From the sequence record PV040721.1: 44,228 nucleotides of DNA; one strand, written 5' to 3'. The translations under genes were made by a program, and so were the position numbers. This document shows positions 3,987-32,146 of this stretch, one piece after another. Within the stretch, counting starts at the first letter, position 1; each line of letters begins with the position of its first letter. The stretch comes from Escherichia phage BUCT825. The notes beneath the pieces are model-generated. The model searched no databases, was not told the origin of the DNA, and saw only the letters and a program-made list of their open reading frames with translations.

Positions 3987-4015
3987 ACTATAATAGCTAA
4001 CTATTCAGGTGTCAA
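3987..4015 (-). promoter_or_regulatory. sigma70-like promoter, minus strand (-35 TTGACA 4010-4015, -10 TATAGT 3987-3992)
   Basis: Reverse complement TTGACA-N17-TATAGT; conserved with 578-606 and 7083-7111. Confidence 0.65.
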
Positions 4016-7082: not shown

Positions 7083-7111
7083 ACTATAATAGCGAACTAT
7101 TCACATGTCAA
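7083..7111 (-). promoter_or_regulatory. sigma70-like promoter, minus strand (-35 TTGACA 7106-7111, -10 TATAGT 7083-7088), divergent from the Cro-like gene
   Basis: Reverse complement TTGACATGTGAATAGTTCGCTATTATAGT. Confidence 0.65.
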
Positions 7112-7175
7112 TGGGCTTTTCTAAAATAATTAATATGGTACTATTCACATATCAACTGACTAAGGAGTAACTGAC

Positions 7176-10570: not shown

Positions 10571-10599
10571 TTGCACACCCCAACATAATAGGTTACTAT
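10571..10599 (+). promoter_or_regulatory. Early-type promoter (-35 TTGCAC, 17-bp spacer, -10 TACTAT followed by TCAC)
   Basis: TTGCACACCCCAACATAATAGGTTACTATTCAC; near-identical copies at 12262-12290 (+) and 32118-32146 (-). Confidence 0.6.
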
Positions 10600-10633
10600 T
10601 CACTTATTGAAACTAGACAGAGGAGTTAGGGTT

Positions 10634-12261: not shown

Positions 12262-12290
12262 TTGCACACTAAGATAGAATAGGCTACTAT
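12262..12290 (+). promoter_or_regulatory. Early-type promoter (-35 TTGCAC, 17-bp spacer, -10 TACTAT followed by TCA)
   Basis: TTGCACACTAAGATAGAATAGGCTACTATTCA. Confidence 0.6.
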
Positions 12291-12322
12291 TCATTTACAC
12301 AGACGAGACAGAGGAAAACGAA

Positions 12323-14153: not shown

Positions 14154-14462
14154 TTGGATAAATTTACTGAAACAGTGACGGGGTGGCTTCTCGCTGCCGC
14201 ACTGGTCGGTGGATTGGTCGGACTAAGACAACATAAAAAGTCTATATCCGGGCCGATTGACGGACTGGTATTTCTCCTCACCGGCTTCGCGTGTGCCATT
14301 TTCGGTGCACCTCTTGCTGCTCAATGGTTCGGTATTACCGGTGAGCGCGAGATAGCTGGCCTCGGATTCATCATTGCCATTCTCTGGATGCCTATCTATT
14401 CCCGCCTTTCTGGCATCGTATCGGGCGGCGATATTGCCCACCCAGGAGGACCGCATGACTGA
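14154..14462 (+). CDS. holin (102 aa, about 3 predicted TM segments), TTG start
   Basis: Hydrophobic segments LLAAALVGGLVGL, LVFLLTGFACAIFGAPLAA, LGFIIAILWMPIY; no in-frame ATG before the first TM; strong SD. Confidence 0.6.
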   Translation: MDKFTETVTGWLLAAALVGGLVGLRQHKKSISGPIDGLVFLLTGFACAIFGAPLAAQWFGITGEREIAGLGFIIAILWMPIYSRLSGIVSGGDIAHPGGPHD

Positions 14463-14727
14463 GCTATTCTGGTTTGTCGTAATGCTGGCAATGGGCGCTT
14501 CGTCCCTGTTCAACGTGTATAATGAACGCGTGGACGACGGGATATTCGGTCGGGTGCTCTATATCCTGTCCGCTATTGTCTGCGCCGCCGGATGTATTCA
14601 CCTGTTACAGGGCGGCATGTCACCTACGCTGCCCGAGACATTAATCACATTAGTTGCGCTGCGCCAGATTCGTCAGGCGTGGCTGTCGTACGGAGGGCAT
14701 AAGCGTGTCTCGAAACATTTCAGATAA
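14456..14727 (+). CDS. second small membrane protein (about 90 aa, 2 TM): holin/antiholin-like
   Basis: ATG at 14456 with SD AGGAGG, overlapping holin stop; TM segments FWFVVMLAMGASSLF and LYILSAIVCAAGCIHLL. Confidence 0.5.
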
Positions 14728-15238
14728 TGGACTTACCGCAGATAAGCTGCGCGAGGTTTTACACTACGACCCCGATACCGGAGTTTTTACATGGAAAGCT
14801 ACACGTGTGCACAATGCTCGGGCGGGAAGTGAGGCTGGCGCCAACCATTGTGCAGGCTATCGCTCCATAGCCTTCGGTGGGAAGCGGTACTTGGCGCATC
14901 GTCTCGCTTGGCTATACATGACAGGGGAATGGCCCAACTCCCTAATAGACCACATAAACGGCGATGGTCGTGATAATAGATTCTGTAATTTACGTGAAGC
15001 CAACAAATCCGAAAACGGATGCAACAAAGGGCCAAGAAAGGACAGCAAATCCGGTATTAAGAACGTTATGTGGCAGAAGCAACAAGGAGGATGGTACGTT
15101 CAATTAAAAATACATAAGATTAAGTATTTTTACGGATACTTTGCGGACCTAGAACTAGCCGCGCTAGTTGCCGAAGAAGCTAGAGAGAAGATACACGGGG
15201 TTTTCGCGAACCATAAATTACGGGAAGGTGCTTTATGA
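14654..15238 (+). CDS. HNH homing endonuclease with AP2-like domain (likely start GTG 14705)
   Basis: HRLAWLYMTGEWPNSLIDHINGDGRDNRFCNLREANKSEN (HNH); conserved N-terminal LTADKLREVLHYDPDTGVFTW; stop overlaps endolysin ATG (ATGA). Confidence 0.8.
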   Translation: MRCARFVRRGCRTEGISVSRNISDNGLTADKLREVLHYDPDTGVFTWKATRVHNARAGSEAGANHCAGYRSIAFGGKRYLAHRLAWLYMTGEWPNSLIDHINGDGRDNRFCNLREANKSENGCNKGPRKDSKSGIKNVMWQKQQGGWYVQLKIHKIKYFYGYFADLELAALVAEEAREKIHGVFANHKLREGAL

Positions 15239-15717
15239 GAAACATTAGCAACAATGGCATCAAATTCACCGCAGCGTTTGAGGGGTTCCGCGGAACTGCG
15301 TATCGTGCTACGCCAAATGAGAAGTACCTGACTATTGGGTACGGTCATTATGGGCCAGACGTAACGCCAGGCAAGACCATCACCCCGGGACAAGGCCTCC
15401 TGTTACTGAATCGTGATATGGCTAAGGCCGTAGCTGCGGTTGACGCAGCAGCGCACCATTCACTGACGCAGGCGCAGTTTGATGCTGTTTGCGACCTGGT
15501 CTATAACGCGGGCGCTGGCGTGATTGCTGCTACTACGGGCACGGGTAAGGCGCTGCGTTCTGGTGATATCACGACGCTGCGGGCTAAGCTGGCGCTGTTC
15601 ATCAACCAGAATGGTAAACCGTTACTTGGTCTGCGTCGCCGTACTGCGGGTCGTCTGGCGTTGTTCGACGGTAAACAGTGGCAGGAGGCGGAGGCTATCG
15701 GGAGGGCTGTTAAATGA
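15235..15717 (+). CDS. endolysin, GH24 (T4/lambda-type lysozyme), 160 aa
   Basis: FEGFRGTAYRATPNEKYLTIGYGH catalytic region resembling T4 lysozyme E...D...TIGIGH. Confidence 0.85.
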   Translation: MRNISNNGIKFTAAFEGFRGTAYRATPNEKYLTIGYGHYGPDVTPGKTITPGQGLLLLNRDMAKAVAAVDAAAHHSLTQAQFDAVCDLVYNAGAGVIAATTGTGKALRSGDITTLRAKLALFINQNGKPLLGLRRRTAGRLALFDGKQWQEAEAIGRAVK

Positions 15718-16001: not shown

Positions 16002-16030
16002 TTGACTATTATCCTCGACCCTATTATATT
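16002..16030 (+). promoter_or_regulatory. sigma70-like promoter (-35 TTGACT, 17-bp spacer, -10 TATATT)
   Basis: TTGACTATTATCCTCGACCCTATTATATT upstream of the 16065 gene block. Confidence 0.55.
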
Positions 16031-16064: not shown

Positions 16065-16262
16065 ATGGGCAACGTATCGACGATAGAAATAACCGAAGAA
16101 CTCGAAGTTAAATGTATCGCATCAGTTATAGGGAATGGTTCGGTGGAAAAACTACAGATGAGGGCTGCTGCGGGCTACATACGCAGGGCTAATAGCGCGC
16201 AGACTGATGTTTTACGTAAACGTTACCTCGTGAAAGCGTTAGAAATACTGGAGAATAACTAA
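16065..16262 (+). CDS. hypothetical protein (65 aa)
   Basis: ATG with SD GGAG. Confidence 0.5.
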   Translation: MGNVSTIEITEELEVKCIASVIGNGSVEKLQMRAAAGYIRRANSAQTDVLRKRYLVKALEILENN

Positions 16263-16411
16263 TGAAAATTACAGATATCGAAGCATTCAAAGACGCACAA
16301 CTGATGGCACGCATCGCCGTTAGCAACCTGAGCAACAGCATCCCAGCGGCTGCATTCTGGTTCGCCGCGATGCAGACACTGAAAGCAGCTTATGCAGGAG
16401 AGAAGAAATGA
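16262..16411 (+). CDS. hypothetical protein (49 aa)
   Basis: Manual translation MKITDIEAFKDAQLMARIAVSNLSNSIPAAAFWFAAMQTLKAAYAGEKK; start overlaps upstream stop. Confidence 0.4.
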   Translation: MKITDIEAFKDAQLMARIAVSNLSNSIPAAAFWFAAMQTLKAAYAGEKK

Positions 16412-16617
16412 TCGACGTTATCGTTGGTTGCATCTATAAGAGTAATTACTCGTGGGGTGATGTAGGTGAAGTTAGTTTCATTGTAACTGCGGTTGGGTTG
16501 GACCACGTACTTATCGCCGACTACCCATTGATGAAATTCAATGAATCCTATTCAGAATATTGTGTTGGTAGAAAGGAGTTCGAGGCTAAATTTAAGTTTG
16601 CAGGAGAGAAGAAATGA
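16408..16617 (+). CDS. hypothetical protein (69 aa)
   Basis: ATGA overlap; C-terminus FAGEKK encoded by repeated junction. Confidence 0.5.
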   Translation: MIDVIVGCIYKSNYSWGDVGEVSFIVTAVGLDHVLIADYPLMKFNESYSEYCVGRKEFEAKFKFAGEKK

Positions 16618-16811
16618 AAGTTAAAGCCGCTAAAATTCTCTGGTTAGCCGCCCTTGACTATGTGACAGAGGGTAAAGTGTACGATGTGTACAACCCGACA
16701 GCTACTGGTTTCGGTTATATAGACTCCGACGACGACTGCTATATTTTCATAGACTTTGGTAACGATGAAGGTGATGGCTTCCACGGCGTTAAATGGGAGA
16801 TTGTAGAATGA
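16614..16811 (+). CDS. hypothetical acidic protein (65 aa)
   Basis: ATGA overlap both ends. Confidence 0.5.
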   Translation: MKVKAAKILWLAALDYVTEGKVYDVYNPTATGFGYIDSDDDCYIFIDFGNDEGDGFHGVKWEIVE

Positions 16812-16966
16812 GCGAACAAGGTCAAGTAAGCCAACCATTACGAGTAGGCCGTAAAGTCAGTCACACCTCGTTCCCGACACGAGAGGAGCTTATGAAACGT
16901 AACAGTTTCCCGGGGCCGGACAAGAACAAGTATCTAAATCGCATGTGGGGAGAGCGTAAAGAATGA
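16808..16966 (+). CDS. hypothetical protein (52 aa)
   Basis: Manual translation MSEQGQVSQPLRVGRKVSHTSFPTREELMKRNSFPGPDKNKYLNRMWGERKE; ATGA overlaps. Confidence 0.35.
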   Translation: MSEQGQVSQPLRVGRKVSHTSFPTREELMKRNSFPGPDKNKYLNRMWGERKE

Positions 16967-17160
16967 CTGACCGTGAATATGAAAAGATGATGGTGGAGGC
17001 TGTTAACGGCGGCGTAGACATCAGTCACGTGATGCACGTCCTGAATACTAAAATCGCTGTAGCCGAGCAAATGGTTGAGTCACTTTACGAGACACGTCGT
17101 GAACTGATTAACCGCTTCAACCTGAACAAAGCATCCGGTGATGGGCATGAAAGCGCCTGA
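16963..17160 (+). CDS. hypothetical protein (65 aa)
   Basis: ATGA overlap. Confidence 0.5.
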   Translation: MTDREYEKMMVEAVNGGVDISHVMHVLNTKIAVAEQMVESLYETRRELINRFNLNKASGDGHESA

Positions 17161-17329
17161 ACCAGTAGTGATTGATGGCGTCCTGTGGAAACCATACTCT
17201 GTTAACCATATCGACGCCGACGGGAAGAAGTTTAGCTTCTACATTTTTGCGATTAGCCGTGAGCACGCCGCCTGTGTGGTCGATGATATACGAGAAACGG
17301 CGTGGCTTGGCGATGAGATAGTGGGGTGA
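17138..17329 (+). CDS. hypothetical protein (about 60 aa; start uncertain)
   Basis: ORF overlapping 3' end of previous gene. Confidence 0.4.
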   Translation: MMGMKAPEPVVIDGVLWKPYSVNHIDADGKKFSFYIFAISREHAACVVDDIRETAWLGDEIVG

Positions 17330-17416
17330 GAGTATGAGTCTTGAGGTTGTTATAAGTCTGGTTGGTCTTAGTTACTTCATTGGGCTGTTGGTTGGGTTTC
17401 TGTGGGGTAGGTACTA

Positions 17417-17587
17417 ATGTTCAGTGACATCAACGCGGCAATCGAGGAAGCAATATGGCGTCGTTACAACGGCGAGCAACAACGGCACTTCTGCCTGGTG
17501 CAACGTGGGAACATGATTGCTGTAGTGCAGGACCGCGATAACAAATATCCGAATGCGATGTGGACAACGAGGAATTTCTTAGGATGA
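17417..17587 (+). CDS. hypothetical protein (56 aa)
   Basis: Manual translation MFSDINAAIEEAIWRRYNGEQQRHFCLVQRGNMIAVVQDRDNKYPNAMWTTRNFLG. Confidence 0.35.
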   Translation: MFSDINAAIEEAIWRRYNGEQQRHFCLVQRGNMIAVVQDRDNKYPNAMWTTRNFLG

Positions 17588-17820
17588 TTACCAGCATTCC
17601 TAACCTGATTAAAGAATTTGGCACGATGGCCGAGACGTGCCGACAAACCGGCATCAACGAAATGACGATTGCGAAGTACAGCAAAGACGTGGACTGCGAG
17701 CGCCACGTAATTTATAACAACCGTCTGATGACGCACGTTAAAACAAGCCCGGTGTTATTCACGCGCCGGGGTATCACTAAAACTGAGCAACGTATCGCAC
17801 GAGAGGAGAGCGGGGAATGA
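17584..17820 (+). CDS. small HTH-like protein (78 aa), last gene before the late region
   Basis: ATGA overlap; helix-turn-helix-like segment ETCRQTGINEMTIAKYSKD. Confidence 0.45.
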   Translation: MITSIPNLIKEFGTMAETCRQTGINEMTIAKYSKDVDCERHVIYNNRLMTHVKTSPVLFTRRGITKTEQRIAREESGE

Positions 17821-17922
17821 GACTACTAATCATCCCTAACGCCCGGGCCATTCCCGTAGCTAACGACCATTACGGCGGCGACGGTAAAAGAGCACCACGC
17901 CACGGCCTATACAACTGATACA

Positions 17923-17946
17923 AGCCCTCTACCGAGGGCTTTTCTG
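17923..17946 (+). terminator. Intrinsic terminator (AGCCCTC-TACC-GAGGGCT followed by TTTCTG)
   Basis: 7-bp stem then T-rich tail. Confidence 0.6.
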
Positions 17947-17974
17947 TACATCCCGCCCAATCCCCTTATATAAT
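17946..17974 (+). promoter_or_regulatory. candidate late promoter: extended TTATATAAT -10 with poor -35
   Basis: TATAAT at 17969-17974; no TTGACA-like hexamer at -35; followed by palindrome AGACGCG-TAGGG-CGCGTCT (17981-17999). Confidence 0.3.
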
Positions 17975-18039
17975 CCATTTAGACGCGTAGGGCGCGTCTG
18001 GTGCGCTCTGATGGTCAGACGCATATGCAAGGGGATTCT

Positions 18040-18588
18040 ATGAAGCTGAAACTCAAGCAGCCATCACCAGAGGTGGTGCAAGCTGCACATGAAGAAGCTG
18101 TTAGCGCAAACCGTCGCCGTAAACGACCGCGCGGTAAACAGAGCCTTTATCAATCATCCCGTAATTCCGCCGCGTTGTGGGACCCGGACTATTGTGACGA
18201 ATTGATTCGTTTCTTCGACCGCACGTCGTGGGAGGCTATGCCGACCGGTGCGCACGGAGACTACAAAGCAGTCATTGCGGATAAACCGCCATCACTGGCT
18301 CGCTTCGCCTTACACATCGGTGTCACTATCCCGATTATTAAGCTGTGGCTGCGCGAGATTCCCTCATTTGCAGAAGCCTATGAAACGGCACAGGCGCTGG
18401 AAGAGGCGTATTTCACTGAGAATGGGGCCGCCGGTATCTCTGCTACGTTCGCCGCCGCTAAGCTGGGCCTTAGCAAAGAGAAACCAGTCGAATCCACCGA
18501 AGAAACAGCACCGACCGAGATTATTTTCAGTGTCGCGGAGCCTGTGGGTAAAATCGTAACAACGAATATGGGCGAGGTAGAGGAATGA
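18040..18588 (+). CDS. terminase small subunit (about 182 aa)
   Basis: Immediately upstream of and overlapping TerL; basic N-terminus, HTH-like PSLARFALHIGVTIPIIKLWL, acidic C-terminus; ATG at 18040 with GGGG SD. Confidence 0.6.
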   Translation: MKLKLKQPSPEVVQAAHEEAVSANRRRKRPRGKQSLYQSSRNSAALWDPDYCDELIRFFDRTSWEAMPTGAHGDYKAVIADKPPSLARFALHIGVTIPIIKLWLREIPSFAEAYETAQALEEAYFTENGAAGISATFAAAKLGLSKEKPVESTEETAPTEIIFSVAEPVGKIVTTNMGEVEE

Positions 18589-19835
18589 GTATTCAGCTAT
18601 CCGCACCACAGGCGCTGTTCCTGAATTGCGACAATAAATATAAAGCCTATGTCGGGGGCTTCGGCAGCGGAAAGACATTTGTCGGCTGTCTGGACCTGCT
18701 TACGTTTATGCTCAAGCACCCCGGTACGCGCCTGGGCTACTTCGGCCCGACCTATCCCGCCATCCGTGACATCTTCTACCCAACATTCGAGGAAGCGGCT
18801 AACCTGCTCGGCCTTGATGTGCTGGTTAAATCCGGCGACAAAGAAGTCGTGGTTACTCGCGGTAAGACGGTGCTCGGGACCGTTATCTGCCGCTCTATGG
18901 ATAACCCCGGCTCGATTGTGGGTTTCAAAATCGCCGCAGCATGCGTGGATGAGCTCGATGTATTGAGCCGCGAGAAAGCCGAGCTGGCGTGGAACAAAAT
19001 TGTGGCCCGTATGCGTCTGGTTATCCCGGGTGTAACTAACCACATCTCTGTTACCACGACGCCGGAAGGGTTCAAGTTCGTCTACGCCAAGTTCAAAGAG
19101 AATCCGACGCCAAGTTACTCGATGGTTCAGGCTTCTACACACGAGAACGCGCGATTTCTGCCCCCGGACTACATTAGCTCACTGACCGAGACTTATCCCG
19201 CGCAACTGATTAACGCGTATCTGAACGGTGAGTTCGTCAACCTTACCTCCGGCAGCGTGTACTACGCATACGACCGACGCAAACATCGCAGCAAAGAGAC
19301 AATTCAACCGGGCGACACGCTGTACATCGGCCAGGACTTCAACGTTACGAAGAACGCCAGCGCCGTATATGTGCAGCGTAAAGACGGCTGGCACGCGGTG
19401 GCAGAACTGAAAGGCCTGTTTGATACGCCAGACACCGTGCGTGTAATTACTGAGAAGTGGAAGTCGCAGGACCACCGCATAGTCGTTTACCCGGACGCCA
19501 GCGGCAAGAACCGCAAAACCAACTCGGCATCAATCTCAGATATTGCGTTACTCCAGCAGGCCGGGTTCGATGTTCGCGCTAAATCCGCCAACCCCCCGGT
19601 TAAAGACCGTGTTTTAGCCGTGAATACCGCGCTGGAAAAAGGTAAGCTGTGGGTTAACGACCACTTATGCCCCGAGATAGCGAAGACGCTGGAGCAGCAG
19701 GCATACGACGATAACGGAGAGCCAGCTAAAGACGGCATCATTGACCATATGGCGGATGCTCTCGGCTATCCGGTAGTTTACGAGATGCCGGTGGTTAAAC
19801 CAGTAATCAACATCCCGGTGACTTTCGCACTTTAA
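18585..19835 (+). CDS. terminase large subunit (416 aa)
   Basis: Walker A GGFGSGKT, Walker B AACVDELD, C-terminal nuclease-like region. Confidence 0.85.
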   Translation: MSIQLSAPQALFLNCDNKYKAYVGGFGSGKTFVGCLDLLTFMLKHPGTRLGYFGPTYPAIRDIFYPTFEEAANLLGLDVLVKSGDKEVVVTRGKTVLGTVICRSMDNPGSIVGFKIAAACVDELDVLSREKAELAWNKIVARMRLVIPGVTNHISVTTTPEGFKFVYAKFKENPTPSYSMVQASTHENARFLPPDYISSLTETYPAQLINAYLNGEFVNLTSGSVYYAYDRRKHRSKETIQPGDTLYIGQDFNVTKNASAVYVQRKDGWHAVAELKGLFDTPDTVRVITEKWKSQDHRIVVYPDASGKNRKTNSASISDIALLQQAGFDVRAKSANPPVKDRVLAVNTALEKGKLWVNDHLCPEIAKTLEQQAYDDNGEPAKDGIIDHMADALGYPVVYEMPVVKPVINIPVTFAL

Positions 19836-19847
19836 GAGGATTATTCA

Positions 19848-21329
19848 ATGTTAACTATGAACGGTCAGAATCAGGGTGTTAAGACTAAACACCGGGAATG
19901 GCTGCATCACTTCGATAAATGGCAGAAGGTACGCCACGCGCTGGAAGGCGACCTTATTCGCTACCTGCGCAACGTCGGGAAGAACGAACCCGACCCGACG
20001 TACGCTGCGCAGCGCCAGGAAGAATACGAGAACGGCGCTATCTGCTACAACTTCACCAAGCGCACCCTGGCTGGGATGGTCGGCAGTGTCATGCGCAAAG
20101 ACCCTGAACAGATTATTCCGCCTGAACTGGAGTACCTGTTACGTAACGCGGATGGTTCTGGTGTTGGGCTGTGGCAGCACGCGCAAGACACTTTGATGGA
20201 GATTGACTCAGTGGGTCGAGGTGGGTTGCTGGTGGACGCCCCGGAGACCGCCGCGGCAACGGCGGCAGAGCAGAACGCGGGGTTATTAAACCCGGTCATC
20301 GCTTTCTATACCGCAGAGAACATCATCAACTGGCGACTGACCCGCGTCGGTTCTGTTAACCGTGTGACAATGGTCGTGTTGCGTGAAGTGTGGGAATACT
20401 CAGAACCTGGAGCAGAGTTCGAAACTAAGTTCGGTGAACAGTACCGCGTCCTTGACCTGATTGATGGTCGCTACCGCCAGCGCATTTACCGTTTCGACGC
20501 CGAGGGCGGCGCTCAGGGCGAAGTAATCGAAATCTTCCCGGAACTCGGCGAACAGTTACGCGGCAAAATCCCGTTCACGTTCATTGGTGCAAGCAACAAC
20601 GATGCAACCATTGACGATGCACCTTTGCTGCCGTTGGCTGAGCTTAATATTGGGCATTTCCGCAACAGTGCAGACAATGAGGAGTCCAGCTTCGTCGTAG
20701 GCCAGCCTACTCTGTTCATCGCCCCCGGTGAGAACATGAGCATGGAACAATGGAAAGAAGCCAACCCGCACGGAGTGCGCATGGGGTCTCGTTCAGGCCA
20801 TAACATCGGGTACGGCGGCAACGCGTTTCTGGTTCAGGCAGGGGAGAACAACCTCGCCAAACAGAATATGCTGGATAAAGAGAATCAGGCCATTCAGATT
20901 GGCGCGCAGCTTATCACCCCGACGCAGCAAATCACCGCCGAATCCGCCCGCCTGCAACGCGGCGCCGATACGTCAGTCATGGCAACAATCGCGCGTAACG
21001 TAAGCATGGCGTACACCGATGCATTGCGCTGGGTGGCTGCCATGCTTGGGCTTAGTGATGGTACTGAGATTGAGTTCAAACTTAATATGGAATTCTTCCT
21101 GCAACCGATGACCGCTCCCGAACGAGCGCAGTGGACGGCGGATATTAACGCTGGCCTGCTACCCGCTACTGCTTATTACGCGGCATTGCGCAAGGCCGGT
21201 GTAACTGACTGGACAGACGAAGATATTCGGAACGCTATCGATGATGCGCCGCTGCCGTTGGGTACTGTTACTCAGGTAGAGGGAGAGATTCCGCAGTCGG
21301 CGCAGCAACAAGACGCCACTCAGCCGTAA
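19848..21329 (+). CDS. portal protein (493 aa)
   Basis: Size and position directly after TerL, followed by terminator and head morphogenesis gene. Confidence 0.7.
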   Translation: MLTMNGQNQGVKTKHREWLHHFDKWQKVRHALEGDLIRYLRNVGKNEPDPTYAAQRQEEYENGAICYNFTKRTLAGMVGSVMRKDPEQIIPPELEYLLRNADGSGVGLWQHAQDTLMEIDSVGRGGLLVDAPETAAATAAEQNAGLLNPVIAFYTAENIINWRLTRVGSVNRVTMVVLREVWEYSEPGAEFETKFGEQYRVLDLIDGRYRQRIYRFDAEGGAQGEVIEIFPELGEQLRGKIPFTFIGASNNDATIDDAPLLPLAELNIGHFRNSADNEESSFVVGQPTLFIAPGENMSMEQWKEANPHGVRMGSRSGHNIGYGGNAFLVQAGENNLAKQNMLDKENQAIQIGAQLITPTQQITAESARLQRGADTSVMATIARNVSMAYTDALRWVAAMLGLSDGTEIEFKLNMEFFLQPMTAPERAQWTADINAGLLPATAYYAALRKAGVTDWTDEDIRNAIDDAPLPLGTVTQVEGEIPQSAQQQDATQP

Positions 21330-21339
21330 GTTCACCTAT

Positions 21340-21360
21340 AGCCCCGAAAGGGGCTTTCTT
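21340..21360 (+). terminator. Intrinsic terminator (AGCCCC-GAAA-GGGGCT followed by TTCTT)
   Basis: GNRA-type loop hairpin after portal gene. Confidence 0.65.
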
Positions 21361-21365
21361 ACAGT

Positions 21366-22442
21366 ATGCTATTAACTTTAGCGCCACAGGGTTTATCTAT
21401 GAGCTTACTTACATCTCTAATTAGCCACCAGATATGGCTGCAACGTACTGCATCCGGTGAGGTGAAAGACCTAGCACCGTTCATTCAGGAGATGCGGGAC
21501 GAAATCAAACGGCAGGTGCTGTTATTCGGCGATGATGGCCGCAGCACCGCCCGGCTGAATAAACTGTTACGCGACCTTGAAGAAGCACTGGCTGGACTTA
21601 CAGTTGACTGGCAAACAAAGCTGACAGAAGACCTTAAGGAACTGGCGGCATATGAGGCTGAGTGGAACGTAAAGACACTTACCACCAACGTTAACGCGGA
21701 ATTTGTTACACCTACCGCCGAGCAGGTGTGGGCCGCTGCCGAGTTTCAACCTCTGTCGCTAAGTGACAAGCCCGTTGACTTCACCAAGCTGATGTCAGGC
21801 TGGGGTGAAGCGGAGGTCGCGCGCCTTGTAACTGGCGTTAAGATGGGCTTTGTGCAAGGCCAAACCACACGGCAGATTGTTAAAGAAGTAGTTGGTAAAG
21901 GCGGCCTGGCTGACGTATCAGAGAAACACGCTGCTACAGTAATCCGCACCGCGCTGTCCCACGTGTCCAACGAAGCCCGTAATGAGACGTACCGCCAGAA
22001 CGACGACATTATCGAGAAATATGAGTGGGTGTCTACTCTTGATTCTAGGACCTCAGCCGTTTGCAAGGCCAGAGATGGGATGACGTGGGAAATCGGTAAA
22101 GGGCCGATGCCCCCCGCCCATCCGAACTGCCGGTCGTGCACGGCTCCGGTAATCAGTTCGGAGTTCGACTTCCTGGATAAAGGCGCAAAACGCGCGGCTA
22201 AGGGTGCGGACGGAGGTACTCAGGTAAGCGCAGACACCACTTACTACGAGTTCCTGAAACAACAACCGGCATGGTTTCAGGACCAGGCTCTAGGCCCGGT
22301 GCGGGGTAAGATTTTCCGTAACAGCGGTATATCGCCGGAAGAGTTTCGCGTAATATCTGTAGATGGTTTCGGGAATCCGCTCACGCTTAAGCAGATGGCG
22401 GAACTCGATAAACGTGTTGCTGATTATCTGAAAGGGGAATAA
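21366..22442 (+). CDS. head morphogenesis protein (SPP1 gp7 / Mu F-like)
   Basis: C-terminal LDSRTSAVCKARDGMTWEIGKGPMPPAHPNCRSC signature. Confidence 0.65.
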   Translation: MLLTLAPQGLSMSLLTSLISHQIWLQRTASGEVKDLAPFIQEMRDEIKRQVLLFGDDGRSTARLNKLLRDLEEALAGLTVDWQTKLTEDLKELAAYEAEWNVKTLTTNVNAEFVTPTAEQVWAAAEFQPLSLSDKPVDFTKLMSGWGEAEVARLVTGVKMGFVQGQTTRQIVKEVVGKGGLADVSEKHAATVIRTALSHVSNEARNETYRQNDDIIEKYEWVSTLDSRTSAVCKARDGMTWEIGKGPMPPAHPNCRSCTAPVISSEFDFLDKGAKRAAKGADGGTQVSADTTYYEFLKQQPAWFQDQALGPVRGKIFRNSGISPEEFRVISVDGFGNPLTLKQMAELDKRVADYLKGE

Positions 22443-22903
22443 TGATGGGCTTTTTCAAAGTAACTGATGTACCGTCGCGTCGCGTAGTCCAGTACGCCCG
22501 TGTGCCTGGCTCCGGCGAGAACGTGGTATTTATTGAAGATGAAAGTGTACTGGGTGCGCCCGTAGACGATATGCCGTTTGCAGATAAAACCGGTATTGCG
22601 CTACCGGCGGCGGGCATGCTTTATGAGATTCAGTACCTGGCGGATGCTGGTGATGTGTATTTCTCCGTACAACCGCAGGACGCTGAACTGGCAGACGGCA
22701 GCGCAAATATCGCTGTCGAAGTTAAGGCGGGCAAAGCACCATATGCGCTGACCTGGTACAAAGACGGGAAGGAAGTGGTTAACGCCCCGGAAGAGGCTTT
22801 GTCTCTGACGGTTAATTCTGTTGGGGAATACTTCGTTAAAGTTACTGATGCCGATGGTGTAGAGGCCGTCAGTAAAGCGGCGAAGGTCACTAAGCCAGAA
22901 TAA
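22442..22903 (+). CDS. Ig-like domain protein (153 aa), possible capsid decoration/accessory protein
   Basis: C-terminal Ig-like pattern PYALTWYKDGKEV...VGEYFVKVTDADG. Confidence 0.55.
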   Translation: MMGFFKVTDVPSRRVVQYARVPGSGENVVFIEDESVLGAPVDDMPFADKTGIALPAAGMLYEIQYLADAGDVYFSVQPQDAELADGSANIAVEVKAGKAPYALTWYKDGKEVVNAPEEALSLTVNSVGEYFVKVTDADGVEAVSKAAKVTKPE

Positions 22904-22908
22904 ACTGA

Positions 22909-22929
22909 AGCCCCGAAAGGGGCTTTTTA
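22909..22929 (+). terminator. Intrinsic terminator (AGCCCC-GAAA-GGGGCT followed by TTTTAG)
   Basis: Same hairpin as at 21340. Confidence 0.65.
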
Positions 22930-22978
22930 GTGCCTGTGATTATTCCAGTTATTCCACTCAATTGTAAATGTTGGAATA

Positions 22979-22994
22979 AACTATTCGAATAGTT
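22979..22994. promoter_or_regulatory. Perfect 16-bp palindrome AACTATTCGAATAGTT (candidate operator) overlapping a -35 hexamer
   Basis: Self-complementary sequence read directly; half-site ACTATTC recurs in several promoters. Confidence 0.5.
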
Positions 22995-23021
22995 GACTTT
23001 TCACTTAAAATGTGCTAAGCT
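22993..23021 (+). promoter_or_regulatory. candidate promoter (-35 TTGACT, 17-bp spacer, -10 TAAGCT)
   Basis: Hexamers and spacing read directly; weak -10. Confidence 0.35.
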
Positions 23022-23201
23022 CCACCTGAGCTTGTGAAGTATGAACAAGCGACCGCGGCGCGGGCAGGTAACGGAGCGGGGCGTTAGCCCTGAGTGTAGT
23101 TACGCTGACGCGTTCGGAAGGGCCATACTCTATTGCTTGTGTAAAAAGTAACTGGTTTACTGAGATTACGCCGTTTCTATGTTTAAATGATAAGGACTAG
23201 C

Positions 23202-23226
23202 GCCCCGCTTTATGGCGGGGCTTTAC
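23202..23226 (+). terminator. Intrinsic terminator/attenuator (GCCCCGC-TTTATG-GCGGGGC followed by TTTACTTAT) immediately upstream of the Rz RBS
   Basis: 7-bp GC stem plus U-rich tail. Confidence 0.55.
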
Positions 23227-23245
23227 TTATCGAGAAAGGAGAAAC

Positions 23246-23632
23246 ATGAATATTAAAGCAACTGTCGTAGCAGGAGCATGTTACATCATCCTGTTATACA
23301 CGCACGGCTACTATCAATACCGCAGCGGCTGGAACGGAGGCAGGGCTAATCTAGTTTCGCAGCAACAGCAGAAAGCACAGGCTGAGTTAGCGAAGAAAAC
23401 ACAACGGCAGCAGCAGGACGAATCAAAGGCCGCCGCCGCTGACAACGAAGGCAAGACGAAATCAGAGGTGATTACCCGTGAAGTCGTTAAGTACATTAAA
23501 ACGCCTGGCCGCAGCGTGTGCACTTTCGACGATGCTCGCGTCCTGCTCAAGTCCCGCGCCGTCGCAAACGCCAATTCCATCCCCGGATACGACGATGATG
23601 CAGCCGCCATGCAAACTGGCCGCGCCAAGTAG
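23246..23632 (+). CDS. Rz: i-spanin (Rz-like), 128 aa
   Basis: N-terminal TM anchor VVAGACYIILLY, Gln-rich coiled-coil region, overlapping out-of-frame lipoprotein gene. Confidence 0.7.
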   Translation: MNIKATVVAGACYIILLYTHGYYQYRSGWNGGRANLVSQQQQKAQAELAKKTQRQQQDESKAAAADNEGKTKSEVITREVVKYIKTPGRSVCTFDDARVLLKSRAVANANSIPGYDDDAAAMQTGRAK

Positions 23633-23741
23633 CGATGCCGATGAGGATTTAGCCATTGACGTTCAGAACACAGAATGTGTACGGCAACTGCGTCTGAAAG
23701 TGTTCATGTTGCAGGATTACGTGAGGAATATTCTGGAATAG
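23478..23741 (+). CDS. Rz1: o-spanin (Rz1-like lipoprotein), 87 aa, GTG start, overlapping Rz in another frame
   Basis: Signal peptide with lipobox LASC, Pro-rich mature part SSPAPSQTPIPSPD; SD AGAGGTG before GTG. Confidence 0.65.
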   Translation: MKSLSTLKRLAAACALSTMLASCSSPAPSQTPIPSPDTTMMQPPCKLAAPSSDADEDLAIDVQNTECVRQLRLKVFMLQDYVRNILE

Positions 23742-23823
23742 TTGCCTTGCATGTTGGAATAATTTATTCTTGACATGTAAATCCGGGTGGCCCGGGTTCC
23801 AACGTCCAGGGGACATACTGACT

Positions 23824-24525
23824 ATGAATCGTTTTTTACGTTATCCGTTCCAGGAAGAAGCTGGGGCAGAAGATAAAGCTGGTGGCGGTGACGCGCCAAA
23901 AATGTTCACCGCTGAAGAAGTTCAGGCGCTGATTGAGAAAGAAGTAGCCGGGCTTAAGGCCAATCAGGAAGTGTTGCTGGCGGAGAAGAAAGAAGCCGCT
24001 CGTAAAGCAAAAGAGGCCGAAGAAGAACGGCAGCGTGCCCACCAGGAGGCGTTAAAAGCCGCTGGTAAGATGGACGAGTTCGAAAAGACGATTCGTAGCC
24101 AGTATGACCCGGTGTTAGCTGAGAAAGATGGTCGCATCTCCAAAATGGCAGAGCGCATCCTCGGCAGCGAACGTAAAGCGGTGTTAGGCTCTTTCGCGGG
24201 CGACTTTATCACCCCTGAAGCAGTAGACATTCTTGCACCGTTCGTTAAGACTGAGTTCGAAGGCGATGATGTGGTTACTAAGTTTGTCGGCGCAGATGGC
24301 AATGTAATCACAACTGACCCGGAACAGTTCCGTAAATATTTGCGTGAACACAAAGCGTTTTCGCATTTGATTAAAGCAAATGCAGCTTCCGGCGGCGGGG
24401 CTTCCGGTGGCAAAGGCGGCGGGGCCGCACCAGCGTTTAAAGACATGAGTGAAGCAGAGCGTTTAGCCCTGTATAAATCGAACCCTGCCGAATTTGAACG
24501 GCAACTTAAAGCCCTGAGGAAATAA
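23824..24525 (+). CDS. scaffolding protein (about 233 aa)
   Basis: Charged coiled-coil protein immediately upstream of major capsid gene; Gly-rich ASGGGASGGKGGGAA segment. Confidence 0.6.
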   Translation: MNRFLRYPFQEEAGAEDKAGGGDAPKMFTAEEVQALIEKEVAGLKANQEVLLAEKKEAARKAKEAEEERQRAHQEALKAAGKMDEFEKTIRSQYDPVLAEKDGRISKMAERILGSERKAVLGSFAGDFITPEAVDILAPFVKTEFEGDDVVTKFVGADGNVITTDPEQFRKYLREHKAFSHLIKANAASGGGASGGKGGGAAPAFKDMSEAERLALYKSNPAEFERQLKALRK

Positions 24526-24527
24526 TA

Positions 24528-25577
24528 ATGGCAATTACTACTATCGGCGATATCGTAACTGGCAACATCCCGGTCCTGGCGTCTTATATGACCGAGGACC
24601 CGGTAGAAAAAACCGCGTTCTTCCAGTCTGGTATTCTGACCCCGACCCCATACGCTGCCGAGATTGCCCGCGGCCCGTCCAACATCGCTAATATTCCTTT
24701 CTGGAAAGCGATTGATACCTCTATCGAGCCAAACTACTCGAACGACGTATACCAGGATATCGCTACCCCGCGTAACGTGCGGACCGGTGAGATGATGGCA
24801 CGCGTTGCATACCTGAACGAAGGTTTCGGCCAGGCGGACCTGACTGTCGAACTGACCAGCCAGAACCCGCTGCAATCAGTAGCTTCTCGCCTGGATAACT
24901 TCTGGCAGCGCCAGGCACAACGCCGTCTGATTGCCACCGCGCTCGGTCTGTACAATGACAACGTGGCCGCTACCGACGCATACCACGAGCAGAACGACAT
25001 GGTGATCGACGTGTCCGCTACTAAAGGCTTCGACGCGGGCGCGTTCATCGACGCTACCCAGACTATGGGTGATGCGCTGATGGGCAACGGCGGTGAAGTG
25101 CTGGGCGCTATCGCAATGCACAGCTTCGTTTATGCGCAGGCCCGTAAGCAGCAGCTTATTGACTTCATCAAAAACGCTGACAACGATACCCTGTTCGCCA
25201 CCTACCAGGGCTACCGCGTGATTGTTGATGACAGCATGACGGTAGTTGGTACAGGCCCGAGCCGTAAGTTCATCTCCATCATCTTCGGCAACGGCGCTAT
25301 CGGTTACGGCGAAGGTAACCCGAAAAATCCGCTGGCATATGAGCGCGAAGAGTCCCGCGGCAATGGTGGCGGTGTCGAAACCTTGTGGACCCGTAAGACC
25401 TGGTTACTGCACCCACTGGGCTACAGCTTCACCAGCGCGGTAATCACCGGTAACGGCACCGAGACTATCGCACGTTCTGCTTCCTGGCAGGACCTGGCGA
25501 ACGCCTCCAACTGGAACCGTGTGGTTGAACGTAAGCACGTACCGATTGCCTTCCTGGTGACTGGTGCAGGTGCTTAA
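24528..25577 (+). CDS. major capsid protein (349 aa)
   Basis: Position after scaffold, strong terminator downstream, size typical of HK97-fold coat proteins. Confidence 0.75.
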   Translation: MAITTIGDIVTGNIPVLASYMTEDPVEKTAFFQSGILTPTPYAAEIARGPSNIANIPFWKAIDTSIEPNYSNDVYQDIATPRNVRTGEMMARVAYLNEGFGQADLTVELTSQNPLQSVASRLDNFWQRQAQRRLIATALGLYNDNVAATDAYHEQNDMVIDVSATKGFDAGAFIDATQTMGDALMGNGGEVLGAIAMHSFVYAQARKQQLIDFIKNADNDTLFATYQGYRVIVDDSMTVVGTGPSRKFISIIFGNGAIGYGEGNPKNPLAYEREESRGNGGGVETLWTRKTWLLHPLGYSFTSAVITGNGTETIARSASWQDLANASNWNRVVERKHVPIAFLVTGAGA

Positions 25578-25593
25578 GGTTAAGCTATAATCG

Positions 25594-25620
25594 AGAGGGA
25601 CTTCGGTCCCTCTTTTCATT
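25594..25620 (+). terminator. Intrinsic terminator (AGAGGGAC-TTCG-GTCCCTCT followed by TTTCATTT)
   Basis: 8-bp stem, UUCG loop, U-rich tail. Confidence 0.7.
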
Positions 25621-25638
25621 TACTAAGAGGATTCCTAA

Positions 25639-25980
25639 ATGGCAGACGTATTGAAGCGACGCATCACCGGCGTCTCCGCTGACACCCCGGGTGCTAAGAT
25701 TGACATGGCGACTATTTCTCCTGCGTCTTTCTCTTCCGCGCTGGCGGCTACTACCGCAGTGACCACAGGTGAAACTATGACGCTGACCGTAACGGTAGCC
25801 GGCGGTCTGGAGCCATATTATTACCAGTGGTATAAGAATAACAACGCTATCGCCGGGGCAAACGCTGCTTCCTATGCGAAGGCGTCCACTACTACCGCAG
25901 ATTCAGGCACGTATAAAGTGGTTGTTCACGATGTGTATGGTAATATTATCTCCAGCAGCACTGTAGCAACTGTGTCTTAA
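25639..25980 (+). CDS. Ig-like (I-set-like) domain protein, 113 aa
   Basis: EPYYYQWYKNNNAI...DSGTYKVVVHDVYG Ig-like signature. Confidence 0.6.
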   Translation: MADVLKRRITGVSADTPGAKIDMATISPASFSSALAATTAVTTGETMTLTVTVAGGLEPYYYQWYKNNNAIAGANAASYAKASTTTADSGTYKVVVHDVYGNIISSSTVATVS

Positions 25981-26016
25981 TACAACGGCCCTTCGGGGCC
26001 GTAATAGGGAAAGGTC

Positions 26017-26196
26017 ATGGCAGATAATTATGTAATCCGCGAAAAATACACCCACGTTGACATTGTTGACGGCCAGGTGATGCCTGTTCGCGGTGCTGTA
26101 GAAGCGGATGAACTGGTTGAGACTCAACCAGACAACGAAGAAGCGCACAACAACGGTGGTGGTACTAAGCGTCGTCGCCGTAAGTCGGAGGAATAA
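26017..26196 (+). CDS. small protein with basic C-terminus (59 aa)
   Basis: Manual translation MADNYVIREKYTHVDIVDGQVMPVRGAVEADELVETQPDNEEAHNNGGGTKRRRRKSEE; SD GGGAAAGG. Confidence 0.4.
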   Translation: MADNYVIREKYTHVDIVDGQVMPVRGAVEADELVETQPDNEEAHNNGGGTKRRRRKSEE

Positions 26197-26199
26197 TTC

Positions 26200-26712
26200 A
26201 TGCCGCTAATCGTGGAAACTGGGGCAATCGTCCCGAATGCCGACAGTTACATTAGTCTGGCTGACGCCCGCGCGTTAGCGGCTAATTACGGTCTTGAGTT
26301 ACCCGCCGATGACATTGATGCTGAAGTTGCCTTACGCAACGGCGCTACCTATGTCGGGCTTGCAGAGCCGCAGATGTGTGGTCGTCGAGTATCTGCCGAA
26401 CAGTCTCTTGCGTACCCGCGCACCGGTGTTACGTTGAATGGTTTCCCTGTAGCGAACAATGTCATCCCGAAGCAGGTTATTCTTGCGCAGGTAATCGCCG
26501 CGGTCACCTATGGTGCAGGTACTGAAGTACGGGCTAACTCAGATGGTCGCGCCGTGCAGACGGAGCGTGTTGAGGGTGCAGTGACAGTGACGTACTTCAA
26601 CAACGGCAACAGTGGAGCTACGACCACGATTACCGCAGCGGACGACGCCTTACGCCCGTTACTGTGTGGCGGTCTTAACAATGGCTTCTCGTTTAACGTG
26701 TACCGGGGTTAA
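26200..26712 (+). CDS. head-tail connector/adaptor protein (gp6-like), 170 aa
   Basis: N-terminal SYISLADARALAANYGLELPADD resembles head-tail connector family signature; strong SD GGAGGAA. Confidence 0.5.
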   Translation: MPLIVETGAIVPNADSYISLADARALAANYGLELPADDIDAEVALRNGATYVGLAEPQMCGRRVSAEQSLAYPRTGVTLNGFPVANNVIPKQVILAQVIAAVTYGAGTEVRANSDGRAVQTERVEGAVTVTYFNNGNSGATTTITAADDALRPLLCGGLNNGFSFNVYRG

Positions 26713-26714
26713 AA

Positions 26715-27329
26715 ATGGCGAAGACTAAAACAGAGATGTTTACCCTTATCGGTGCAAATCTTCCCGATAACACCACCGGACTTATTACCCCCGCCGCATT
26801 GCGCGAGGTAATGACTCAGATGGCTGACTCGCCTATTTACGCAACTCCTGGAGTGAAAGAGGTTGAAGTTCTTCGCGCCGCGTCTACTGTAACCCAAGCT
26901 CCTACCGCGGTAAATACAGCACTGCAGTTAACTTTCGGCTCTGCTCAGGGTAGCGCATCCGACCCTGTAATGATTAATGCTGCGGGGCTGGTTACGTTCA
27001 ACACCGCTTGGAACTATGCCGTTCGCATCAAGTTACAGGCCGGGCGCACTGGTGCTAGTGGGACATCCATCCTGCTATCACGTATTTTAGTAAACGGTGC
27101 TCAGTACGGCTCGCCCGCCGCCACGAAACTAGTCAGCGCCGACACAACAATTCCTATTGAATCACGCGTCGTTATTAACCCGACCGCTGGCCAGACGTTT
27201 GCCGTTCAGATTATGCGGGATAGCGCCGGAAGCAACTTCGGCGGCGTGTACCCGCAAGCGGCTACCGTAACTGCATGGGGTACAGCACCGTCAGCATTAC
27301 TGGTTATCTCGAGACTGGAGGCCGCCTGA
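26715..27329 (+). CDS. virion structural protein (204 aa)
   Basis: Position in head-tail joining region; overlapping start/stop. Confidence 0.45.
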   Translation: MAKTKTEMFTLIGANLPDNTTGLITPAALREVMTQMADSPIYATPGVKEVEVLRAASTVTQAPTAVNTALQLTFGSAQGSASDPVMINAAGLVTFNTAWNYAVRIKLQAGRTGASGTSILLSRILVNGAQYGSPAATKLVSADTTIPIESRVVINPTAGQTFAVQIMRDSAGSNFGGVYPQAATVTAWGTAPSALLVISRLEAA

Positions 27330-27688
27330 TGAGCACCGCTTTCAGTAAGCGTATGCAAGGCGTGGGTACGCGCCTGCTAACTAAATTCGGTAGCACGGTA
27401 TCTCTGATTCGCGCTGGCTCAAAAGTGTGGGATGAAGTTCTCGGTGAATATGTCTGGTCTGACGATGAAGTGTTGCCGTTGAAGGCCGTTCCAGTTCCGG
27501 TAAACGCAGGACTGGTGAACGGTACGACTATTCAGGCAGGCGACATGATTGTTAAAGCGGATTGCAGCGTCGTTCCGAAGATGGAAGACAAGGTGCAATT
27601 CGGCGGCGAGCAATGGTCTGTCGTAGCCATTGAGAAGAAGATGGTTAACGATGATGTCGTGGCCTACTTTATCCAGGTGAGAAAATGA
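27329..27688 (+). CDS. head-tail joining protein (about 120 aa)
   Basis: ATGA overlap at 27329; position. Confidence 0.45.
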   Translation: MSTAFSKRMQGVGTRLLTKFGSTVSLIRAGSKVWDEVLGEYVWSDDEVLPLKAVPVPVNAGLVNGTTIQAGDMIVKADCSVVPKMEDKVQFGGEQWSVVAIEKKMVNDDVVAYFIQVRK

Positions 27689-28080
27689 GTTTCGCGCTCG
27701 ATGTCTCTAAGTTCGTGGAAAAGGCGAAGAAGAACCCCGAGAAGGTGATGCGTCAGGTGTCTATCAAGTTGTTTTCCGCTATTATAAAGGCGAGTCCGGT
27801 AGATACTGGCCGCTTTCGTATGAACTGGATGGCGTCTGGCGGTATTCCTGCTTCTGGAGTTACAGATGCTACCGATAAATCAGGAAACACGGCAACCGGA
27901 AACGCCACGAGTTTCGTACTGAAAGCCGCCGACTGGCGCGAGTTCACGCTGACAAATAATCTGCCGTATGCACAACGGCTGGAGTATGGCTGGTCGCAAC
28001 AGGCACCCGCCGGGGTGGTCAGGACTAACGTGTCCCGCTTCCAGCAACTCATTAACGAAGAAGCCAACAAGGTGAAATGA
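27685..28080 (+). CDS. tail completion/neck protein (HK97 gp10-like), 131 aa
   Basis: PVDTGRFRMNW motif. Confidence 0.5.
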   Translation: MSFALDVSKFVEKAKKNPEKVMRQVSIKLFSAIIKASPVDTGRFRMNWMASGGIPASGVTDATDKSGNTATGNATSFVLKAADWREFTLTNNLPYAQRLEYGWSQQAPAGVVRTNVSRFQQLINEEANKVK

Positions 28081-32087: not shown

Positions 32088-32117
32088 TTTAAACCCCTTC
32101 ATTGTTGGTGTAAGTGA

Positions 32118-32146
32118 ATAGTACCCTATTATATTGGGGTACGCAA
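32118..32146 (-). promoter_or_regulatory. Early-type promoter on minus strand (-35 TTGCGT, 17-bp spacer, -10 TACTAT followed by TCAC) driving the antisense cassette
   Basis: Reverse complement TTGCGTACCCCAATATAATAGGGTACTATTCAC, nearly identical to the promoter at 10571-10599. Confidence 0.6.

Follow-up and report, generated by a model that had tools for sequence, protein, structure and literature searches.

A conserved terminator–promoter junction and a covarying leader RNA are predicted in front of the terminase gene terS of Escherichia phage BUCT825

Introduction

Escherichia phage BUCT825 is represented by sequence record PV040721.1, and the 44,228 nucleotides (nt) of it analysed here, referred to as the window, are an almost complete genome of a Kagunavirus (Guernseyvirinae; lytic E. 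coli siphoviruses like K1G, K1H and JSSK01). This work concerns the junction in front of the small terminase gene terS, where a terminator, a promoter-like sequence and a palindrome follow one another directly before the packaging, head and tail genes. Kagunaviruses and Jerseyviruses are commonly isolated for phage therapy and biocontrol, and a search of the literature found no mapping of the transcription programme of either group.

Among described systems, the DNA of this junction comes closest to intrinsic terminators and to host σ70 promoters that combine a consensus −10 with a weak −35, including the subclass with a TGn extended −10. Weak or absent −35 elements before late morphogenesis genes are also a feature of activator-dependent late promoters (phi29 A3 with p4, Mu Pmom with C, P2 with Ogr, and T4 late). 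For the RNA, the points of comparison are 5'-terminal stem-loops of the ompA type, which reportedly stabilise messenger RNA, the put RNAs of phage HK022, which are cis-acting antiterminators of about 70 nt with two stem-loops one unpaired nucleotide apart, and the three-stem int-alpA motif (Rfam RF02996). For the proteins they are lambda NinH, a Fis-like DNA-bending protein of 68 amino acids, and the small terminase of P22, a phage whose pac site lies inside the terminase gene. The reading that we favour, with moderate confidence, is that a compact terminator–promoter junction opens the packaging, head and tail operon of BUCT825 and that the palindrome acts as RNA, likely as a 5' stabiliser or insulator. 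The new parts are a covarying leader with an AGG loop and an int-alpA-like leader of the tail operon; the junction itself is ordinary and well conserved.

Results

Terminator and promoter in front of terS

The junction comprises the following elements (lengths of stems in base pairs, bp).

17922 to 17946, + strand: intrinsic terminator, 8-bp stem AAGCCCTC/GAGGGCTT, loop TACC, then TTTTCT
17945 to 17950, + strand: −35-like hexamer TGTACA, 4/6 matches, overlapping the terminator U-tract
17969 to 17974, + strand: −10 hexamer TATAAT, 6/6 matches, without TG extension
17981 to 17999, + strand: leader hairpin 1, 8-bp stem with AGG triloop, beginning at the predicted +1
18001 to 18024, + strand: leader hairpin 2, 5 bp, bulged C, 5 bp, loop UGG
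18029 to 18035, + strand: Shine-Dalgarno sequence AAGGGGA of terS, unpaired in the predicted fold
18040 to 18588, + strand: terS, small terminase of 182 amino acids (phrog_3064, E = 3e-69), opening the packaging, head and tail operon

An earlier note on this DNA had placed a terminator, the sequence TTATATAAT (17966–17974) and a palindrome in this interval, and all three were found at those positions, as was the ATG of terS at 18040 behind AAGGGGA. A megablast search with 17300–18700 matched 152 phage records, and the terminator–promoter junction is 100% identical in phage vB_VIPECOTH07. At the terminator, a G+C-rich hairpin (AGCCCTC at 17923–17929 pairing with GAGGGCT at 17934–17940) is followed by TTTTCT, and the segment holding the stem (17900–17960) folds with −18.0 kcal/mol (z = −3.85 relative to shuffles). 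It resembles intrinsic terminators in its stem of 7–8 bp, its tetraloop, its U-rich tail and a compensatory change in relatives, one U-A pair being G-C or G·U in the Jersey (Salmonella) clade (95.8% of alignment cells paired) and, by eye, C-G in a third clade; it differs in its short U-run (UUUUCU), with which termination may be only partial. The terminator was not picked up by a simple terminator scan, and ARNold predicts it as T23 in Kagunavirus fBC-Eco01 (PMC9825357, Table S2).

For the promoter, junctions were gathered from relatives through TerS, which gave 39 distinct sequences; their sources are Kagunaviruses of E. coli and Jersey-type phages of Salmonella. TGTACA varies in none of its six columns and the −10 in one of six (position 3 only, TATAAT or TACAAT, so that TAYAAT holds in all 39), while 15 of the 18 spacer columns vary and the spacer length of 18 nt is kept, save for one exception of 17 nt. 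Hexamers that hardly vary around a variable spacer of fixed length form the footprint of a classical σ70 promoter; the T-run of the terminator is invariant as well. The −10 carries the A at position 2 and the T at position 6 that characterise σ70 −10 elements, and the two hexamers together match the consensus at 10/12 positions, the conservation of TGTACA being partly explicable by the overlapping U-tract. Two earlier descriptions of this site had to be revised. The −10 had been called extended and is not, because TTA rather than TG precedes TATAAT, and a −35 had been called unrecognisable where TGTACA stands at 18-nt spacing. The terminator and promoter signals are fused, since the U-tract (UUUUCUGU) runs into the −35. 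The site resembles σ70 promoters of the consensus −10, weak −35 type in its −10, in a −35-like hexamer placed 18 bp upstream and in the conservation of both over a variable spacer, and differs in that it has no TG and its predicted −35 overlaps the U-tract of a preceding terminator.

When the single sequence was scanned, 3 kb contained 3 promoter-like sites, close to the 3.3 expected, and TTATATAAT occurs once against 0.30 expected. As such matches are at chance level, the case for a promoter must rest on comparative evidence; the complete pattern TGTACA-N18-TANAAT is unique in the window. More distant relatives were found through TerL at about 56% identity, with Serratia phage Eta as the cultured representative. 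In Eta and in a metagenomic clade (loci L241, L246, L252, L259 and L265; the third clade) the terminator is followed by TTTTCA, 18 nt and TGtTATATT or TGtTATAGT. The TG at −15/−14 that is missing at the terS site of the window is therefore present in Eta and the L246 clade, as it is at the tail promoter (32153–32161, see below), and relatives with TATATT or TATAGT are in this respect like the TGn subclass. In these alignments the extension arises where the −10 is weaker, the way in which activator-independent σ70 promoters make up for a poor −35. An exact-pattern scan of viral contigs for TGATGGTCANACGCAT gained few informative relatives, many of the remaining matches being chance-like.

Because the −10 ends at 17974, the canonical start falls on A17981, the first base of the palindrome. 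Promoter activity and this start are what we infer from the elements and their pattern of conservation, and on the sequence evidence the site is a predicted host-type σ70 promoter in an ordinary terminator–promoter junction. Were there no promoter, transcripts would reach terS by read-through from 16002 or further upstream, and the hairpins would mark an RNA-processing site that makes a stable 5' end. The short U-tract TTTTCT may leak, single-sequence matches are at chance level and the published annotation of fBC-Eco01 calls no promoter here; yet conserved hexamers over a varying spacer are hard to explain otherwise, a −10 box with TG extension lies at equal distance in Eta and the third clade, and stem lengths of 8 and 10 bp are on the short side for RNase III, which makes this explanation very improbable.

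Two further patterns around the promoter were considered and set aside. A common promoter class of the form CCCT-N2-TATAnT (16019, 17963 and 32124) occurs at 10 sites against 6.5 expected, not a significant excess, and its two identical 12-mers belong to other elements. Within the spacer, AATCCCCTT (17959–17967) is exactly complementary to AAGGGGATT (18029–18037), the ribosome-binding site of terS; this pairing is probably due to chance, because the spacer changes with no compensating substitutions and the Jersey clade lacks the complementarity. AATCCCCTT would occur in read-through transcripts only, where it could mask and silence the terS ribosome-binding site.

Candidate activators

The description of the promoter as lacking a −35 had led to the suggestion of activator-dependent late transcription, with two helix-turn-helix (HTH) proteins as candidates. 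One of them is encoded upstream of the junction.

17584 to 17820, + strand: NinH-like HTH gene, 78 amino acids, near the end of the small-gene unit (phrog_268, E = 5e-30)

This open reading frame (ORF) and its HTH are as previously described. The protein matches Pfam PF06322 (Phage_NinH) over residues 4–52 with E = 5.4e-5 and 23.5 bits, below the gathering score of 29.8, and homologues in relatives are annotated as NinH or as transcriptional regulators. It is like lambda NinH in being small and encoded in a nin-like cluster of small genes, and differs in falling below the Pfam cut-off and in being 10 residues longer. A phmmer search of the PDB with this protein gave no match, and a single-sequence AlphaFold model was unusable (predicted local distance difference test score, pLDDT, of 46). 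A second protein partly like phrog_268 is encoded at 16963–17160. The other candidate, a phosphoesterase described as carrying a sigma-4-like HTH, has an HTH-like stretch at its N-terminus in our own reading of the translation; it is a poor activator candidate, because it matches the DNA repair exonucleases of PHROG-704 (E = 8e-166) and its GerE hit is weak (E = 0.0099). No polymerase or sigma factor was seen in the annotations of relatives.

It is possible, although we consider it unlikely, that the promoter is inactive alone and needs a late phage-encoded activator, either the NinH-like or another HTH protein. The −35 matches at only 4/6 positions at 18 bp, the NinH-like gene lies upstream of terS in all Kaguna and Jersey relatives (41/41 loci), and the −35 of the tail promoter is weak too, with an inverted repeat near −44.5 that could serve an activator. 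Against this, the −10 is perfect, the −35-like hexamer is invariant, and the only conserved candidate site upstream is the terminator, whose stem covaries. The NinH-like gene and terS lie 137 to 847 nt apart depending on the relative, other small ORFs having been inserted between them; in the third clade, which retains the terminator, promoter and hairpin, the search of about 900 nt upstream found no NinH-like gene. RNA-seq of the relative K1B4 also puts NinH and the structural genes in one temporal class, and the phosphoesterase belongs to a repair exonuclease family. The junction shares with activator-dependent late promoters its weak −35 before morphogenesis genes, and differs from them in its conserved −35-like hexamer and in the lack of a T4-type TATAAATA; neither a site for an activator nor a cognate activator was identified. 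Nothing found requires an activator, and the architecture does not imply one; the activator-dependent reading of a −35-less promoter is not supported, and it is not refuted either.

Two leader hairpins and the start of terS

The palindrome (AGACGCG at 17981–17987, CGCGTCT at 17993–17999) begins at the predicted +1, and the first 44 nt of the predicted transcript fold into two hairpins one nucleotide apart with −23.1 kcal/mol, ((((((((...)))))))).(((((.(((((...)))))))))). The stem of hairpin 1 differs between lineages: GACGCGU-AGG-GCGCGUC in the Kaguna group, GACGCUC-AGG-GGGUGUC in the Jersey group, GUCGGC-AGG-GCCGAC in the metagenomic clade and GCAGGU-AGG-GCCUGC in Serratia phage Eta. All six core pairs form in each of 10 distinct sequences and five of the six change on both sides, with 11 of the 60 cells being G·U or U·G. 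None of 500 shuffles reached the observed pairing or covariation score, and controls with slid partners were 15–67% paired, compared with 100% observed. The AGG triloop and the G that follows it are nearly invariant (loop G12–G14 invariant; one sequence has GGG for AGG). Eta came from BLAST alone; for the metagenomic clade an AGG-loop hairpin was a condition of the search, which introduces a selection bias.

The earlier note had treated the palindrome as a DNA site, suitable as a target for an electrophoretic mobility shift assay. This did not hold, since the DNA symmetry is lost in the Salmonella relatives, in which the arms differ at 3 of 8 positions and the + strand RNA still pairs fully through G·U. 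RNA pairing that is kept where the DNA palindrome is imperfect points to a function in the transcript of the terS strand rather than to a symmetric protein site. Dyads acting in DNA, either as a repressor operator over the +1 or as a pac site for the small terminase, would agree with the perfect palindrome of the E. coli phages (+1 to +19), with three copies of AGACGC within 45 bp and with the frequent location of pac sites in or near terS. Besides the loss of symmetry in the Salmonella arms, however, the stems are wholly different in Eta and the third clade, the conserved part is the asymmetric loop, the heptamer AGACGCG is not enriched genome-wide (9 copies against 8.1 expected), TerS is P22-gp3-like and the P22 pac lies inside the gene, and PhageTerm gave no termini in a relative; a DNA role is therefore highly unlikely. 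The start positions of the Schulenburg, Jersey, AG11 and Kenya phage records were discarded as evidence for pac, as they follow an annotation convention of opening the genome at terS.

No Rfam match was found for the terS leader (17981–18024), including no int-alpA (RF02996) hit at E ≤ 10, and the leader does not belong to that motif. A scan of the window for further AGG-triloop hairpins returned only weak stems placed in coding sequence. With compensatory changes across lineages in both hairpins, the AGG-loop leader is best read as a new, predicted conserved RNA element. At loci L241 and L265 (about 800–1040) a small ORF is inserted between leader and terS, followed by a second −10-like box (TATAAAT) and an imperfect AGG-loop hairpin; this second box and hairpin look like a duplicated promoter–leader module.

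In hairpin 2, where 99.3% of cells are paired, the Salmonella clade has A-U in place of one C-G pair, a compensatory change. An alternative hairpin (17994–18000 with 18016–18022) is disfavoured, because in the Jersey phages it acquires a mismatch through a change for which hairpin 2 compensates. Inside hairpin 2 lies an in-frame GTG (18001; ATG in many relatives), at which many GenBank records start terS, 13 codons too long. By our own reading, none of the six Kaguna–Jersey differences in this stretch is synonymous, and the compensatory pair accounts for two of them; an N-terminal extension of TerS from the GTG was therefore rejected. The all-non-synonymous changes in 18001–18039, together with hairpin 2, place the true start of terS at 18040 and correct an over-extension by 13 codons that is common in database records.

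The leader of the tail operon

The motif CGTCTGGYGCG had been reported to recur upstream of the tail operon, as a possible shared regulatory element. The exact 11-mer is present at 17995–18005 and at 32203–32213 (the end coordinates given earlier were one base too long), and these are its only two exact copies; allowing one mismatch raises the count to 8 (2.1 expected), the additional ones in coding sequence. The recurrence was confirmed, and the shared function was not, as the two copies belong to separate covarying RNA structures and relatives do not preserve the motif as a unit: GTCTGATGCG is found at terS in many relatives and CCGCCTGGCGC at the tail site in distant relatives. In the tail leader, CGTCTGGCGCG makes up the 3' strands of P3 and P1, whereas the same letters at terS span hairpins 1 and 2. 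The repeat is probably a coincidence between two G+C-rich structures. The elements at the tail operon are as follows.

32153 to 32161, + strand: predicted extended −10 promoter TGtTAGAAT of the tail operon
32168 to 32212, + strand: leader of the tail operon, int-alpA-like RNA, holding the second motif copy (32203–32213)

Conservation of TAGAAT and the AAnTTTGCGCC that follows extends to relatives whose proteins are about 50% identical, and the TG is present in most of them. The leader starts exactly 7 nt after TGtTAGAAT, and RNAalifold gives three stems with 3 covarying pairs, independently the same stems as the cmscan alignment to RF02996 (27.7 bits, E = 2.5e-4, model positions 4–54 of 71; the Rfam gathering score of 35.8 is missed). 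The leader resembles int-alpA in that P1 (GCGCC/GGCGC), UAG, the P2 hairpin, the CGAAAAG junction, P3 (GCGGG/CCCG) and CUGGCGC align, and differs in its shorter P1, its missing 3' tail, its score below the gathering threshold and its context, the tail operon of a lytic phage rather than an int-alpA interval. A pattern scan found bona fide int-alpA RNAs above threshold in the late structural regions of other viral contigs (L312, 549–617, 68.7 bits; L301, 9418–9484, 44.4 bits; L304, 1075–1140, 42.9 bits), one of which directly follows an HK97-type capsid gene, another stands two genes ahead of a tape-measure gene and a third sits 7 nt after TGaTATAAT. This suggests that the int-alpA motif acts in cis, as a 5' or internal leader in the late operons of phages, and is not a free small RNA.

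When the first 45 nt were folded at twelve promoter candidates, the terS leader reached −23.1 and the tail leader −16.7 kcal/mol, compared with 0 to −8.4 kcal/mol for the other ten; among 3000 random windows the two rank in the lowest 0.03% and the lowest 2%, respectively. In both late leaders pairing begins at nucleotide +1, so that late transcripts would start with a closed 5' end.

An inverted repeat is centred about 44.5 nt upstream of the predicted start of the tail operon (32115–32135). It is present in each lineage with a lineage-specific sequence (AATAG..CTATT here, ACAATA..TATTGT in L206, GCTAAT..ATTAGC in L209–L211) and might serve the tail promoter as an activator site of class-II type or as a site for a repressor. 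It also overlaps a leftward TATAAT (32133–32128) of an operon that opens with a superinfection-immunity gene and an exonuclease.

Genome setting and a repeated 20-mer

The junction lies between two groups of genes, with a lysis cassette further upstream.

14154 to 15717: two holins and an endolysin
16002 to 16030: strong σ70 promoter TTGACT-17-TATATT, with two terminators, found by eye, alongside
16065 to 17918: eleven small genes, the NinH-like gene among them
17817 to 17918, + strand: ORF of 33 amino acids (phrog_32259, E = 3e-14), overlapping the stop codon of the NinH-like gene (ATGA)
18040 to 29662: terS, terL, portal, head and tail genes

This order supports a real boundary between transcription units, at which a small-gene unit with its own promoter ends at the terminator and the promoter of terS and the head and tail genes comes next. 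The proposed transition to a late module therefore applies to the morphogenesis genes, and not to the lysis cassette, which sits upstream in a separate transcription unit. The 33-amino-acid ORF takes up the space that the NinH-like gene leaves before the terminator; it is kept in many relatives, including Salmonella phages, and lost or replaced in others, and the interval from the NinH-like gene to the terminator (17820–17920; loci L003–L051) is a hot spot of small-ORF gain and loss. Relatives of terS are annotated as terminase small subunit, the record of phage Schulenburg noting HHpred similarity to P22 gp3. Within the operon, + strand terminators lie at 23202–23221 and 25593–25614 without a promoter-like site after them. 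An Rz-like spanin gene (23246–23632) follows the first of these inside the head-gene module, about 7.5 kb from the holin–endolysin cassette.

A 20-mer, TGAATAGTAnCCTATTATnT, containing the inverted repeat AATAG-N4-CTATT occurs in 6 copies against 0.01 expected.

3988 to 4007, − strand: 20-mer copy
7084 to 7103, − strand: 20-mer copy
7128 to 7147, − strand: 20-mer copy
10583 to 10602, − strand: 20-mer copy
12274 to 12293, − strand: 20-mer copy
32115 to 32134, + strand: 20-mer copy

No copy lies near the terS promoter. The 20-mer fills the spacer and −10 of consensus σ70 promoters at 4015..3987 and 7111..7083, and two copies stand just upstream of a gene for an XRE/Cro-like HTH protein of 71 amino acids (7176–7391). 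Together with about 15 nt downstream of them, the copies at 10583, 12274 and 32115 share a longer element of about 37 nt, TAAGTGAATAGTAnCCTATTnTnTTGGGGTnnGCAAG; at 12274 its orientation is opposite to that of the + strand genes around it. In fBC-Eco01 the 20-mer was published as "phage RNA polymerase promoters" PP1-7 (PMC9825357). Despite that label no polymerase is annotated in these phages, and with two copies adjoining the gene of the XRE/Cro-like regulator the 20-mer is more likely its operator.

Discussion

In the model that we propose for this junction, transcription of the small genes from the promoter at 16002–16030 would halt, at least partly, at the hairpin 17922–17941 and its U-tract, and host RNA polymerase with σ70 would restart at about A17981 from TGTACA-18-TATAAT. 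The nascent RNA would fold at once, its 5' end sealed by the hairpins at 17981–17999 and 18001–18024 and the ribosome-binding site of terS, further downstream, left unpaired. The palindrome would work as RNA and not as a DNA operator. The likeliest role of the hairpins would be to shield a messenger of about 11.6 kb from decay that depends on the 5' end and to insulate the ribosome-binding site; the near-invariant AGG loop suggests that some factor may also read hairpin 1.

The role assigned to the hairpins is drawn by analogy from the established behaviour of 5' stem-loops. As in ompA-type stem-loops, a stable hairpin begins 0–4 nt from the predicted 5' end with the ribosome-binding site free, and the tail leader starts similarly; the position within 2–4 nt of the 5' end that is expected of a stabiliser holds relative to the predicted +1 only. 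The terS leader differs from them in its near-invariant AGG, as loop sequence is not known to matter for stabilisers. This makes the stabiliser role the weakest step, because a pure stabiliser needs no invariant loop.

Several other observations weigh against the proposed model. TGTACA is a weak −35 at a non-optimal spacing of 18 bp, and its conservation could partly reflect the terminator U-tract. The covariation rests on few independent lineages (about four), and about 3 chance hairpin hits are estimated over the 78 kb scanned, although of all hits just the one at the homologous position counts. The published annotation of fBC-Eco01 predicts no promoter at this junction (PMC9825357), and our literature search found no data on transcription start sites or reporters for it. 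The lone RNA-seq study of a relative (K1B4) used coarse time points and placed NinH and the structural genes in one "middle" class; the paper and its supplements contain no transcription start sites and no per-gene expression table.

Since the AGG loop is left unexplained by a stabiliser, a regulatory reading is kept open, in which the leader is a protein target or a put-like antiterminator. That the hairpins are a cis-acting regulatory RNA, either a translational operator or an element of terminator resistance comparable to HK022 put that would act on the internal terminators, is in our estimate quite improbable. The loop is near-invariant while the stem covaries, two hairpins one nucleotide apart stand directly after the promoter, the terminators at 23202–23221 and 25593–25614 have no promoter-like site behind them, and the second late operon likewise begins with a conserved structured RNA. 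However, the leader has no Rfam match, the two late leaders are without a common architecture, no candidate binding protein was identified, and the element measures about 44 nt rather than the approximately 70 nt of put. The likeness to put is one of architecture, namely two stem-loops one nucleotide apart near the promoter of a long operon that contains terminators; the HK022 record carries no put annotation.

If the hairpins are 5' stabilisers alone, the finding is an ordinary one. We raise only tentatively, as an unlikely proposition, that both late operons of the Guernseyvirinae type open with dedicated, sequence-specific leader RNAs that are regulatory devices rather than passive stabilisers. 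If true, these leaders would recruit a factor to the 5' end of late transcripts, or alter RNA polymerase or the ribosome there, E. coli, Salmonella and Serratia phages would have a new terS-leader RNA motif in common, and the orphan int-alpA motif would gain its first functional context, as a 5' leader of phage late operons. Leaders that control stability, translation or read-through would account for the sustained expression of operons of about 10–12 kb in these phages without a phage polymerase.

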